64,000 bases of DNA from Escherichia coli (lineage in GTDB: Bacteria > Pseudomonadota > Gammaproteobacteria > Enterobacterales > Enterobacteriaceae), in assembly GCF_003334765.1 (NCBI RefSeq), contig NZ_QOWT01000007.1; one strand, given 5' to 3'. The notes under the pieces are model-generated. The model had not been told where the DNA came from and did not search any database. It was given only the letters and a program-made list of their open reading frames with translations. The position numbers and the translations under genes were made by a program. Each line of letters opens with the position of its first letter. Within the stretch, counting starts at the first letter, position 1. Positions 10,365-17,292 of this stretch are shown piece after piece.

Positions 10365-13542
<3,178 letters not shown>

Positions 13543-13833
13543 GGTTCTCTCCCTAAAAATCTGTCTGGCAGGGTAGCGATTTGTGCGTATTGTCACGATT
13601 GAGATTTTTTAAGGTGAGAGGAAATTGATAACTTGTAGTTATGTGAAATCGCTATTTTCTGTAGCGTAGATGCATTCTTCTGACTTCTTGTCTGAGAAAA
13701 TGCATAAGAAAAAATAGGTTAAAATTGAGGGGTGGAAAAGAAAGGTGCAATGTTTAGCCATTGTGTTCACCGCACCTGGACTTTGGCTTACGCATCGGGT
13801 ATCTCAATCAACAAAAAGAGTTTTTAGTTTCTG

Positions 13834-14670
13834 CTATTTCTTCTCTGTAATTTTTACACTGTTTTCCAACTGCTTGATGCTGACCTGCGGGGTCGGCAAC
13901 TCCTCAGGCATGGTTCCGCCAAGTTCCTGAATGGTTTGCATCACCTTGCTACCCACGTCAAAGTGTGTGGTATTAGCTTGCTGTTTTGAATTCACGCCAT
14001 CCCGCTTGAGTTTTTCTTCTGTTTGGGTAGCTCGAAAGAGATTAGCCGCCAGTTCTGTTGAACCCATATGATCCAGGATCTTCTGATTCTTTTTCAGCCC
14101 CTTCCGCTGATGAATAGCTTTCTGATCTAATCCACCATACAGCCCCTGGTAACCATGATTCTGAAATATGGCGAAATCAGTAGCTGTCGCTACCCCAGCT
14201 TGCTGTGCTGCCTCAACCAATTGTTTGTTATGTTCTTTCAACTCATTTCTCAGAAACAGACGCTTTTCGTCTTCACGAAGTTGCTTAAATGCTTCATCGT
14301 CAGCAAGCTCCTGCCGTCGGGTCTGGATAGCAAAATAAGTCTGCCCTGCCGCAATGACCGGTTTCGCAGGGTCGCCGTTTTGTACTACCAGGTAACAGGC
14401 ATAGCGGGAGAGTACGATGTCTTTTAATGCTCTTTTGGCATTTGAGCCAATTTTGACCATATCGAGGATCTCCTCGAAATGGTCATCAATTGTGTGACCA
14501 CTGTTCTCACAGGCTTCTTTGGCGCGCGTTAATACAGGTATAAAGTGACGATACTCTGAATAACCCAGTAGTTTCCCAAGTTGTCTTGCTGACCATTGTT
14601 CTGCTCCGTTTGCATTAATCAGTTTTATCTCTTCAAAAGGTTGATGATGTTCGTTCATTGCCCACTCCAT
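13834..14670 (-). CDS. dinD: DNA-damage-inducible protein D
   Basis: 278-aa ORF (MEWAMNEHHQPFEEIKLINANGAEQWSARQLGKLLGYSEY...); perfect LexA box just upstream. Confidence 0.8.
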   Translation of the reverse strand: MEWAMNEHHQPFEEIKLINANGAEQWSARQLGKLLGYSEYRHFIPVLTRAKEACENSGHTIDDHFEEILDMVKIGSNAKRALKDIVLSRYACYLVVQNGDPAKPVIAAGQTYFAIQTRRQELADDEAFKQLREDEKRLFLRNELKEHNKQLVEAAQQAGVATATDFAIFQNHGYQGLYGGLDQKAIHQRKGLKKNQKILDHMGSTELAANLFRATQTEEKLKRDGVNSKQQANTTHFDVGSKVMQTIQELGGTMPEELPTPQVSIKQLENSVKITEKK

Positions 14671-14703
14671 GTGATATCAATTGCAAAGAAAGTAAATCTG
14701 TAA

Positions 14704-14719
14704 CTGTATTTATATACAG
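14704..14719 (-). promoter_or_regulatory. LexA (SOS) box CTGTATTTATATACAG upstream of dinD
   Basis: 16-bp CTG-N10-CAG palindrome matching the LexA consensus, about 35-50 bp upstream of the dinD start. Confidence 0.8.
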
Positions 14720-14879
14720 TTGTGAGTATCTCACGTTCTCAGTGTGCTGGGCAAAAAAACATCGCAAAATCTGGAGCAGGCACGAAAAACAGAATTGAAA
14801 GTTGCGGGGAAGAAAAATGCCGCTCTGTTTGAGTGGGCGGCATTTGTGAAGGCTGAAAAGTAAGAATTGGCGTTACGAG

Positions 14880-15743
14880 TTATTCAATATTCTGAATCTG
14901 CTCGCGCATCTGCTCAATCAACACTTTCAGCTCAATCGCGGAGTTTGTCACTTCGGCATTGATAGACTTCGACGCAAGAGTGTTCGACTCGCGGTTGAAC
15001 TCCTGCATCATAAAGTCCAGACGACGACCAACGGCTTCTTTTTTCTTCAGAATGTTGTAGGTCTCTTTGACATGCGCTTCGAGGCGGTCCAGTTCTTCGG
15101 CAACGTCAATTCGTTGTGCCAGCAGAACCAACTCCTGCTCCAGACGGTTGTTTTCCAACTGAACCTGAGCATCTTCCAGCTTCGCGACCAAGCGTTCACG
15201 CTGCCATTGCAGGATTTCCGGCATATGGGAGCGGACTTTGACCACTTCGGCGGTGACGCCTTCCAGACGCTGCTCGATCAATGCTTTCAGTGCCTGACCT
15301 TCGGTTTCGCGCGCGACAATAAAGTCGTCCAGCGTACCATCCAGCGCCGCGAGAATTTCAGCGGCAATGGCGTCAAGATCCTGCTCCTGGGCTGCCATCA
15401 CGCCCGGCCAGCGTAGAATATCAACCGGGTTGATTTCCCCTTCGTCACTCTGCATTTTTACCCAGTTCGCGGCAGTTACCAGCTGTTTAGCCAGTTTTTC
15501 GTTGAGGATCAGCTCACCTTGCGCGCTAACATCTGGCTCATAGCGCAGGGTACATTCCACTTTACCGCGCGTCAGGCGAGAACGAATACGCTCGCGAACG
15601 ACAGGTTCAAGGCTACGGAACTGCTCCGGCAGACGAAAGTAAGTTTCCAGATAACGCTGGTTTACCGAGCGCATTTCCCAGGTTGCGCTCCCCCATTCAC
15701 CCTTGATTTCACGCCGGGCGTAGGCGGTCATACTGCGGATCAT
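14880..15743 (-). CDS. yicC: YicC-family stress-induced protein
   Basis: 287-aa ORF MIRSMTAYARREIKGEWGSATWEMRSVNQRYLET...; divergent from rph. Confidence 0.9.
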   Translation of the reverse strand: MIRSMTAYARREIKGEWGSATWEMRSVNQRYLETYFRLPEQFRSLEPVVRERIRSRLTRGKVECTLRYEPDVSAQGELILNEKLAKQLVTAANWVKMQSDEGEINPVDILRWPGVMAAQEQDLDAIAAEILAALDGTLDDFIVARETEGQALKALIEQRLEGVTAEVVKVRSHMPEILQWQRERLVAKLEDAQVQLENNRLEQELVLLAQRIDVAEELDRLEAHVKETYNILKKKEAVGRRLDFMMQEFNRESNTLASKSINAEVTNSAIELKVLIEQMREQIQNIE

Positions 15744-15869
15744 AGACGTTCCTGTTTATAAAAGGAGAGGTGGAAGGATTATAGCCATCGATGCCTTGTC
15801 AGGATAGGAATAACCGCCGGAAGTCCGTATAATGCGCAGCCACATTTGTTTCAAGCCGGAGATTTCAAT

Positions 15870-16586
15870 ATGCGTCCAGCAGGCCGTAGCAATAATCAGG
15901 TGCGTCCCGTTACCCTGACTCGTAACTATACAAAACATGCAGAAGGCTCGGTGCTGGTCGAATTTGGCGATACCAAAGTGTTGTGTACCGCCTCTATTGA
16001 AGAAGGCGTGCCGCGCTTCCTGAAAGGTCAGGGCCAGGGCTGGATCACCGCAGAGTACGGCATGCTGCCACGTTCTACCCACACCCGTAACGCTCGTGAA
16101 GCGGCGAAAGGTAAGCAGGGTGGACGCACAATGGAAATCCAGCGTCTGATCGCCCGTGCGCTTCGCGCGGCAGTAGATTTGAAAGCGCTGGGTGAGTTCA
16201 CCATTACGCTGGACTGCGACGTGCTTCAGGCTGATGGTGGCACGCGTACCGCTTCGATTACGGGTGCCTGTGTGGCGCTGGCAGATGCGCTACAGAAGCT
16301 GGTGGAAAACGGCAAGCTGAAAACCAACCCGATGAAAGGGATGGTAGCCGCGGTTTCTGTCGGGATTGTGAACGGCGAAGCGGTTTGCGATCTGGAATAC
16401 GTTGAAGACTCTGCCGCAGAGACCGACATGAACGTAGTGATGACCGAAGACGGGCGCATCATTGAAGTGCAGGGGACGGCAGAAGGCGAGCCGTTCACCC
16501 ATGAAGAGCTACTCACCTTGTTGGCGCTGGCCCGAGGGGGAATCGAATCCATTGTAGCGACGCAGAAGGCGGCGCTGGCAAACTGA
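15870..16586 (+). CDS. rph: ribonuclease PH, full length
   Basis: 238 aa from [20 protein letters not shown]... ending ...[16 protein letters not shown]; the wild-type C-terminus is present, not the K-12 rph-1 frameshift form. Confidence 0.9.
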
Positions 16587-16593
16587 TTTTTAA

Positions 16594-16618
16594 GGCGACT
16601 GATGAGTCGCTTTTTTTT
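16594..16618 (+). terminator. rph–pyrE intergenic hairpin + T-run (pyrE attenuator)
   Basis: GCGACT/AGTCGC stem with GATGA loop followed by an 8-T run, placed between the rph stop and the pyrE start. Confidence 0.7.
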
Positions 16619-16650
16619 GTCTGTAGAAAAGTAAGATGAGGAGCGAAGGC

Positions 16651-17292
16651 ATGAAACCATATCAGCGCCAGTTTATTGAATTTGCGCTTAGCAAGCAGGT
16701 GTTAAAGTTTGGCGAGTTTACGCTGAAATCCGGGCGTAAAAGCCCCTATTTCTTCAACGCCGGGCTGTTTAATACCGGGCGCGACCTGGCACTGTTAGGC
16801 CGTTTTTACGCTGAAGCATTGGTGGACTCCGGCATTGAGTTCGATCTGCTGTTTGGCCCTGCTTACAAAGGGATCCCGATTGCCACCACAACCGCCGTGG
16901 CGTTGGCGGAGCATCATGACCTGGACCTGCCGTACTGCTTTAACCGCAAAGAGGCAAAAGACCACGGTGAAGGCGGCAATCTGGTTGGTAGCGCGTTACA
17001 AGGACGCGTAATGCTGGTAGATGATGTGATCACCGCCGGAACGGCGATTCGTGAGTCGATGGAAATTATTCAGGCCAATGGCGCGACGCTTGCTGGCGTG
17101 TTGATTTCGCTCGATCGTCAGGAACGGGGGCGCGGCGAGATTTCGGCGATTCAGGAAGTTGAGCGTGATTACAACTGCAAAGTGATCTCTATCATCACCC
17201 TGAAAGATCTGATTGCTTACCTGGAAGAGAAGCCGGAAATGGCGGAACATCTGGCGGCGGTTAAGGCCTATCGCGAAGAGTTTGGCGTTTAA
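16651..17292 (+). CDS. pyrE: orotate phosphoribosyltransferase
   Basis: 213 aa from [36 protein letters not shown]...; PRPP-binding motif [13 protein letters not shown]. Confidence 0.95.

Follow-up and report, generated by a model that had tools for sequence, protein, structure and literature searches.

The classical LexA operator of Escherichia coli dinD, with leads on the mobile, restriction-linked family of its product

The DNA analyzed here is a 64,000-nucleotide stretch of Escherichia coli sequence (hereafter, the window). The strain is not K-12, and positions 13600-14900 are 100% identical to strain CFSAN061772, whose annotation gives the gene order spoT-rpoZ-gmk-ligB-yicG-dinD-yicC-rph-pyrE-slmA-dut-coaBC. 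The gene of interest, dinD (alternatively named pcsA or orfY), is flanked by yicG and yicC, with no restriction-modification (R-M) or defence neighbor in the window. In its product, a Bro-N domain at the N-terminus precedes a helical C-terminal part that is highly conserved. Nearby, rph (15870-16586) encodes an intact RNase PH of 238 aa; K-12 strains MG1655 and W3110 carry the frameshifted rph-1. The features in and around dinD are as follows.

13717-14879, minus strand: presence/absence cassette holding dinD with promoter and LexA box, plus the terminator of yicC, delimited by strain comparison
13834-14658, minus strand: dinD coding sequence, 274 aa, from the RefSeq annotation of a 100%-identical genome
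13867-13882, minus strand: 16-nt stretch CAGCATCAAGCAGTTG in the dinD 3' end, an exact match, complementary to tisAB RNA according to PMC2577331
14665-14668, minus strand: Shine-Dalgarno sequence GGAG, 6 nt before the ATG at 14658, read directly from the sequence
14702-14721, no strand of its own: LexA operator (SOS box), a 20-mer that reads AACTGTATATAAATACAGTT in the dinD sense (minus strand)
14704-14719, no strand of its own: core inverted repeat CTGT-N8-ACAG, CTGTATTTATATACAG, the single match in the window
14725-14754, minus strand: candidate sigma-70 promoter, with a -35 element TTGCCC (14754-14749), an 18-nt spacer and a TG-n-GATACT extended -10 element (14733-14725)
14815-14845, minus strand: predicted stem-loop (-12.4 kcal/mol, z -3.1) with a trailing U-run, 3' of the yicC stop codon

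The GGAG at 14668-14665 supports the RefSeq start of dinD at 14658 over an in-frame ATG further upstream, at 14670. With the start codon on the minus strand at 14658, the operator 20-mer ends 43 nt upstream of it. The first-pass annotation had located the box directly upstream of dinD, a placement that holds, but the gene start implied by its coordinate 14671 (the ATG at 14670) has to be moved to the RefSeq ATG. At the other end of the gene, complementarity between the dinD 3' end and tisAB RNA has been reported, and tisAB-dependent cleavage of the dinD transcript was not observed in that study (PMC2577331).

The claim that CTGTATTTATATACAG at 14704-14719 is a perfect SOS box proved exact, both in letters and in coordinates. 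Moreover, the reverse complement of 14702-14721 is the published dinD box AACTGTATATAAATACAGTT, and its flanks (ACA...ACA) are also identical to those in Table 4 of PMC3009722. The core pattern CTGT-N8-ACAG occurs once in the window, at 14704-14719, yet as a bare pattern it is not rare, being expected 0.5 times per 64 kb by chance and found at least once in 41 of 100 shuffles. The looser CTG-N10-CAG is present in 26 copies, where dinucleotide shuffles predict 12.6 and none of 100 reaches 26, an excess that probably reflects codon usage and not LexA sites, since CTG and CAG are favored codons; no copy other than the dinD site exceeds 11.2 bits. The significance of the operator thus resides in the whole 20-mer, which is exceptional. 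Scoring against a LexA weight matrix, proposed in the first-pass annotation, was carried out using a symmetrised matrix derived from the 17 published E. coli LexA boxes other than that of dinD (PMC3009722 Table 4). The 20-mer at 14702-14721 scores 24.9 bits of a maximum possible 30.3, which ranks it fourth among the 18 known E. coli boxes and within the range of the 17 others (13.4-28.0 bits). By comparison, the second-best site in the window reaches only 11.2 bits, and the best site per random 64-kb sequence averages 12.2 bits, with a maximum of 18.5 (100 Markov-1 sequences).

While the position and score of the site were observed here, LexA dependence and the size of the induction come from the literature. 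RT-qPCR on lexA(Def) and lexA(Ind-) mutants has confirmed that dinD expression depends on LexA (PMC3009722), and RNA-seq revealed a 9.8-fold increase with AZT and a 12-fold dependence on LexA cleavage, judged with lexA3 (PMC11228462, Table 1). The same study assigns the dinD box a heterology index of 2.2, among the best boxes of the regulon. Similarly, dinD shows a log2 fold change of ~4.5 after ciprofloxacin (PMC11002266), and dinD-lacZ is a standard SOS reporter (PMC10327210). The site equals the published one and the published LexA-dependent expression agrees, so the idea that this operator is placed to control dinD is well founded. We regard it as virtually certain that 14702-14721 is the LexA operator of E. 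coli dinD, explained by LexA repression and RecA-mediated relief. Because LexA-dependent induction of dinD has already been published, the operator counts as known, a classical SOS box of long standing to which the present analysis adds nothing new.

In undamaged cells, a LexA dimer would sit on the near-consensus inverted repeat, which overlies the dinD promoter and likely transcription start or lies immediately 3' of them, and would block transcription. Upon DNA damage or replication arrest, RecA filaments assembled on single-stranded DNA would stimulate LexA self-cleavage, the site would be vacated, and dinD mRNA would rise ~10- to 20-fold. The relief of LexA occupancy by RecA-stimulated self-cleavage is firm; it is the promoter geometry, namely the exact hexamers and the mode by which LexA blocks transcription, that stays putative. 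A consensus scan of 13500-15000 returned no sigma-70 promoter, and a relaxed hexamer scan gave a weak candidate with 8 of 12 hexamer matches plus the TG, which would set the transcription start near 14718, inside the LexA box. The geometry is therefore weakly defined, since the consensus scan is empty and the candidate matches 8 of 12 positions, but a start within the operator would be typical of LexA repression. The same consensus scan of 13500-15000 returned no terminator, having missed the hairpin 3' of yicC because of its 13-nt loop. This hairpin and its U-run are likely an intrinsic terminator, which would isolate dinD as a transcription unit of its own.

Of 5426 complete E. coli genomes, 4732 contain the dinD region, and ~13% lack the gene and the box together. 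For instance, in strain 23CRST028 (L086, 4118-4194), 77 nt of unrelated DNA between yicG and yicC replace the 1163 bp corresponding to 13717-14879; the sequence 3' of yicC in this dinD-less strain is different. As gene and operator are present or absent together among strains, they can be regarded as one cassette. Conservation within the species was observed directly: five divergent E. coli strains all retain the box and promoter, one of them with a T-to-C change in the spacer that leaves the CTGT-N8-ACAG arms intact, and 3434 genomes match the 46-mer spanning the box at 99% identity or more. A second dinD allele (83% protein identity; P0022; loci L087-L089) is found at this locus too, preceded by a promoter and box that are identical. 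The two alleles differ mainly in residues 12-84, within Bro-N (window 14407-14625), which are 47% identical as opposed to 96% for the remainder, and the N-terminal domain of the second allele is 84% identical to that of an island-borne Salmonella copy (P0091). This pattern looks like a recombinational swap of the N-terminal module.

Beyond E. coli, the picture changes. We applied the same matrix, with a threshold of 15 bits, to the 300 nt preceding each of 80 homologs, keeping in mind that the E. coli-type motif applies to the 40 gamma- and betaproteobacterial loci among them. Boxes of at least 15 bits were found at two loci, both in Citrobacter (21.3 and 23.1 bits). The other 38 of the 40 gamma- and betaproteobacterial loci have no LexA box upstream of the homolog, including eight Enterobacterales loci (Pectobacterium, Photorhabdus, Morganella, Yersinia, Rahnella, and Providencia) where the homolog lies beside yicC and the box-free DNA preceding it bears no relation to the E. 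coli promoter. Because these yicC-adjacent homologs lack the box, the cross-genus comparison lends no support from conservation, and the first-pass description of dinD as a conserved damage-inducible gene is misleading in view of a box at just two of 40 loci. The Citrobacter homolog is located elsewhere in the chromosome, between ibpB and a gene for a 561-aa transporter-like protein, and its box, CACTGTAAAAA(C/T)ATCCAGTA (L016, 5145-5164; L019, 5944-5963), lies 28 nt before the ATG. Pluralibacter (L024) has a copy at the same locus as Citrobacter, with a degenerate site. Inheritance of the Citrobacter box together with the E. coli promoter was considered and rejected, as the flanks cannot be aligned and the spacing to the ATG is 28 rather than 43 nt. 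Judged by upstream sequence, LexA control is confined to Escherichia and, separately, Citrobacter, and the simplest reading would be two independent recruitments of a mobile dinD into the SOS regulon. Two such recruitments would argue for a real functional link between DinD and DNA damage.

Several upstream regions of homologs have features of their own. In Pectobacterium, Yersinia, and Salmonella, a different shared element takes the place of the LexA box: a palindrome GGGATAGGCCTATC / TTATTGT...ACAATAA followed by CAGAATGTGGGATATTGAAGC (~5895-5945 in L003 and L017, ~5880-5930 in L090, and also in L002 and L041). This palindrome may be an operator for another regulator. In Pectobacterium, Photorhabdus, and Morganella, a short conserved GCGCATGATTAGCGTGTAC-like stretch lies 3' of the yicC terminator. 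In Morganella, Providencia, and Photobacterium, strong LexA-box matches of 16-23 bits also occur near other genes, 5.2-5.7 kb upstream of the dinD homolog (near 770 in L011 and L013, near 345 in L036, and near 650-670 in L032); they have no counterpart in the E. coli window.

Two other explanations of the palindrome need to be weighed. That it is a chance AT-rich inverted repeat devoid of regulatory role draws on the pattern counts, with 0.5 copies of the core expected per 64 kb and 26 copies of the looser pattern in the window, but it has negligible probability: at 24.9 bits, the 20-mer stands far over every other site in the window and in random sequence, it is identical to an experimentally studied dinD box, E. 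coli lineages retain it, including those in which the neighboring coding sequence has diverged to 47% identity, and the published LexA-dependent expression contradicts it. The box could also serve mainly another transcript, either the plus-strand open reading frame (ORF) at 14658-14798 or an RNA antisense to yicC, with dinD an incidental target. A palindrome has no strand of its own and a 46-aa plus-strand ORF is indeed present; this ORF, however, is one among many mechanical ORFs, no plus-strand gene is annotated between the box and rph, an Rfam scan found no family in 12000-17000, published arrays and RNA-seq ascribe the induced transcript to dinD, and box and dinD are gained or lost as a single cassette. 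We consider control of another transcript highly improbable and retain the operator as that of dinD.

What the operator regulates is a member of a large family. DinD matches the NCBIfam equivalog NF008573 with 483.5 bits (cut-off 242), its residues 1-274 corresponding to profile positions 6-279, and Pfam Bro-N (PF02498) over residues 10-105 (E 4.6e-7), as well as a PHROG of unknown function. In PADLOC, it is a full-length match to the candidate defence family PDC-S13 (PDLC04919; E 8e-120) and also matches a 717-position HsdS model whose N-terminus is the DinD-like part. The window does not provide a defence or R-M context for the PDC-S13 match, as dinD sits between yicG and yicC there. Homologs with 60-82% identity are found in Gamma-, Beta-, and Deltaproteobacteria, Campylobacterota, Chlamydiae, Bacillota, Spirochaetes, Verrucomicrobia, and Planctomycetes. 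A family profile gathers 10,937 clusters at 50% identity; the best 150 matches listed comprise strong DinD relatives only, a range in which relatives at the level of Deinococcus radiodurans DdrC (discussed below) are not visible. In a 38-sequence alignment, pairwise identity of the C-terminal part (residues 85-255) is at least 69%, while that of the N-terminal domain goes down to 33%.

The genomic company of these homologs points to type I R-M systems. Either hsdM or hsdS lies within 3 kb of the homolog at 28 of 80 loci, and both do at 24; hsdR lies within 6 kb at 20 of the 80 (hsd gene identities were confirmed with TIGR00497 and TIGR00348). The usual gene order at R-M loci is hsdM-dinD-hsdS-hsdR, and homologs between hsdM and hsdS are found in many phyla. 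A dinD-hsdS fusion and a dinD-containing coding sequence between hsd genes have been mentioned in passing (PMC4996451, PMC9881135). Our literature search found no paper on PDC-S13, and neither a paper tying DinD to an anti-phage function nor a published defence phenotype. Some loci have two DinD-family ORFs, flanking hsdM in L026 and between hsdM and hsdS in L055; L073 has two adjacent copies with no hsd genes nearby; and fused or extended forms of 398-435 aa exist (P0011, P0014, P0063, P0108).

Other homologs adjoin P4-like integrative islands; taken together, type I R-M operons and mobile islands account for most of the family. P4-like elements with genes for integrase, AlpA, primase/D5 or DUF927, Bro-N, and Ash are inserted at the yicC 3' end, upstream of dinD homologs, in one E. 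coli, one Salmonella, and two Photorhabdus genomes (L087, 1-5617; L090, 378-5881; L008 and L009, upstream of 6001). In L087, the yicC 3' end appears duplicated, in the manner of an attachment site. The possibility that dinD is cargo of the L087 island was rejected for E. coli, as the island lies upstream of the duplicated yicC 3' end, and the unchanged dinD promoter also contradicts it.

Predicted structure offers a further clue. Single-sequence AlphaFold was unusable (pLDDT 37), and the alignment-based model (AF2 with the family alignment; pLDDT 83.8, pTM 0.66) alone was used. It comprises a strand-helix-wing domain at the N-terminus (to residue ~93), helices that form a linker, and a helical bundle at 129-245. 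In a comparison with a sample of AlphaFold models, the N-terminal domain clusters together with regulators of the Bro-N, Rha, KilA-N, and Ant types. The sole significant fold match in the PDB is DdrC from Deinococcus radiodurans (PDB 7QVB, 7UDI, 8U0G): Foldseek aligned the DinD model to several DdrC chains with E 9e-5 and probability 1.0 over ~240 columns. The model and DdrC share an N-terminal winged-helix domain, a linker, and a C-terminal helical bundle. Global TM-scores are only 0.38-0.47 with a high rmsd, and the predicted similarity is clear by domain and topology, not as a rigid body. DdrC is an asymmetric domain-swapped homodimer (PMC9303277, PMC11347143), and modest TM-scores are thus to be expected if the domain arrangement differs.

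Sequence comparisons point in the same direction as the fold, weakly and without being significant alone. DdrC is the top PDB sequence hit of a broad family profile (A2; E 0.35), and hhalign of A2 against a small DdrC alignment (A3) gave P 7.3e-4 and a probability of 26%, both weak matches spanning DinD residues 128-247. The DdrC sequences retrieved were mostly fragments, so this profile-profile comparison covers essentially the C-terminal domain. A phmmer search with DinD and an hmmsearch with a narrow profile (A1) against PDB sequences yielded chance hits only, the A1 search missing DdrC, and a Pfam search of a DdrC fragment found nothing, Bro-N included. The DdrC papers describe a protein without sequence homologs outside Deinococcus and without known structural homologs, and do not mention DinD (PMC9303277, PMC11347143); in turn, our literature search found no paper linking DdrC with DinD, or DdrC with Bro-N or KilA-N.

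How does DinD act? The first-pass annotation called it functionally uncharacterised, which is only partly true and overstated in view of an activity reported in vitro. According to Uranga et al. 2011, as cited in three sources (PMC4849656, PMC4129442, PMC8989531), purified DinD is reported to inhibit RecA strand exchange in vitro through postsynaptic, i.e., duplex-bound, RecA filaments, where it reportedly removes or inhibits RecA. Given the resemblance of its predicted fold to break-binding DdrC, the most likely target of DinD is DNA or RecA-DNA complexes, at a late stage of the SOS response.

A different view of this product, which leaves the operator as described, is that DinD represents, in E. 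coli, a mobile DNA-binding module of DdrC fold that is linked to defence, and is not primarily a dedicated RecA regulator. We hold this to be possible, though short of probable. The usual home of the module would be a type I R-M operon, where it might bind nicks or ends arising from restriction or from SOS-inducing damage. In that case, RecA might be inhibited in vitro incidentally, because the protein coats duplex DNA or competes for it, and LexA control could be a local adaptation of a solitary chromosomal copy. In favor of this view speak the PADLOC matches to PDC-S13 (full length, E 8e-120) and to the HsdS-fusion model, the hsd genes near 28 of 80 homologs (both hsdM and hsdS at 24), the published dinD-hsdS fusion and dinD between hsd genes (PMC4996451, PMC9881135), the copies adjoining P4-like islands, and the apparent swap of the N-terminal domain between E. 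coli alleles that are 96% identical in the C-terminal part. DdrC adds to these as the sole significant PDB fold match and the top A2 sequence match, with an hhalign P of 7e-4 over the same C-terminal region. On the other hand, our literature search turned up neither a PDC-S13 paper nor a defence phenotype, the E. coli copy has no R-M neighbors, the sequence link to DdrC is not significant by itself (E 0.35; HHalign probability 26%), the structural superposition has low global TM-scores (0.38-0.47) and a high rmsd, and inhibition of RecA filaments is reported (Uranga et al. 2011, as cited) as a specific biochemical activity.

The strands can be drawn together, though we consider the resulting synthesis tentative and on balance unlikely: DinD would be a widespread counterpart of DdrC, an accessory of R-M systems and islands whose solitary copies have been recruited by LexA. 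It is similarly doubtful, if conceivable, that the family consists of Bro-N plus helical-bundle proteins that bind broken or nicked DNA across many phyla. Conversion of a restriction-associated module to an SOS function in Escherichia and, separately, Citrobacter is a speculative proposal that we would not favor at present, and we are equally hesitant to see the inhibition of RecA filaments as one outcome of DNA binding. The R-M-linked mobile family, the lineage-specific and apparently convergent LexA control, the N-terminal swap, and the DdrC-like fold are to be taken as leads, not conclusions.

These leads could matter in a wider context. The name 'DNA damage-inducible protein D' is annotated on thousands of proteins, and it misleads, because most of them lack a LexA box and many lie between hsdM and hsdS. 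Between members from Proteobacteria, Bacillota, Chlamydiae, and Campylobacterota, identity is 60-80%, although the family is distributed patchily and is mobile; together, high conservation and patchy mobility suggest an important, constrained activity tied to type I restriction. The DdrC-like fold, if the model is right, yields a concrete hypothesis for DinD, the binding and bridging of nicks and ends. Were this true, DdrC, described until now as genus-specific and without structural homologs, would no longer be an invention of Deinococcus alone.

Compared with other SOS operators, the dinD box belongs to a familiar class. The umuDC, sbmC, tisB/istR-2, and recN operators share with it the CTGT-N8-ACAG arms and a TA-rich spacer, as well as a low heterology index and strong LexA-dependent induction (PMC11228462). 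In our matrix, umuD, sbmC, and istR-2 reach 27-28 bits, dinD 24.9, and recN 24.4, which together form the top group. The dinD box differs from other strong operators at the outermost positions, which are A/T (AACTGT...ACAGTT) instead of T/A (TACTGT...ACAGTA), and it is a single box, whereas recN and lexA have multiple boxes. The LexA box of K-12 dinD (pcsA) is the same operator without any difference, and the gene order yicG-dinD-yicC-rph-pyrE is common to K-12 and the window.

Among SOS proteins, DinI and RecX are the natural points of comparison, being SOS-induced, LexA-controlled small proteins reported, as is DinD, to act on RecA filaments, and reviews of RecA regulation group the three together (PMC4849656, PMC8989531). 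No relation in sequence or fold was detected between DinD and either DinI or RecX, and DinD differs from both in that its reported action is on postsynaptic filaments and its family is mobile and R-M-linked. With DdrC, DinD shares the predicted fold, at about 15% sequence identity. DdrC belongs to the Deinococcus radiation response and is not controlled by LexA, unlike dinD, and it binds nicks or DNA ends in pairs and can compact or circularise the molecule (PMC11347143). Moreover, DdrC has been described as Deinococcus-specific, whereas the DinD family numbers ~11,000 clusters at 50% identity.

Finally, DinD can be set beside PDC-S13, to which it has a full-length HMM match, and beside accessory genes embedded in type I R-M operons. 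PrrC, the anticodon nuclease of the EcoprrI locus, is such an accessory gene inside a type I R-M operon, and the dinD homologs found in R-M operons occupy an analogous position. In contrast to these embedded genes, the E. coli dinD copy is solitary, placed between housekeeping genes, and under the control of LexA.
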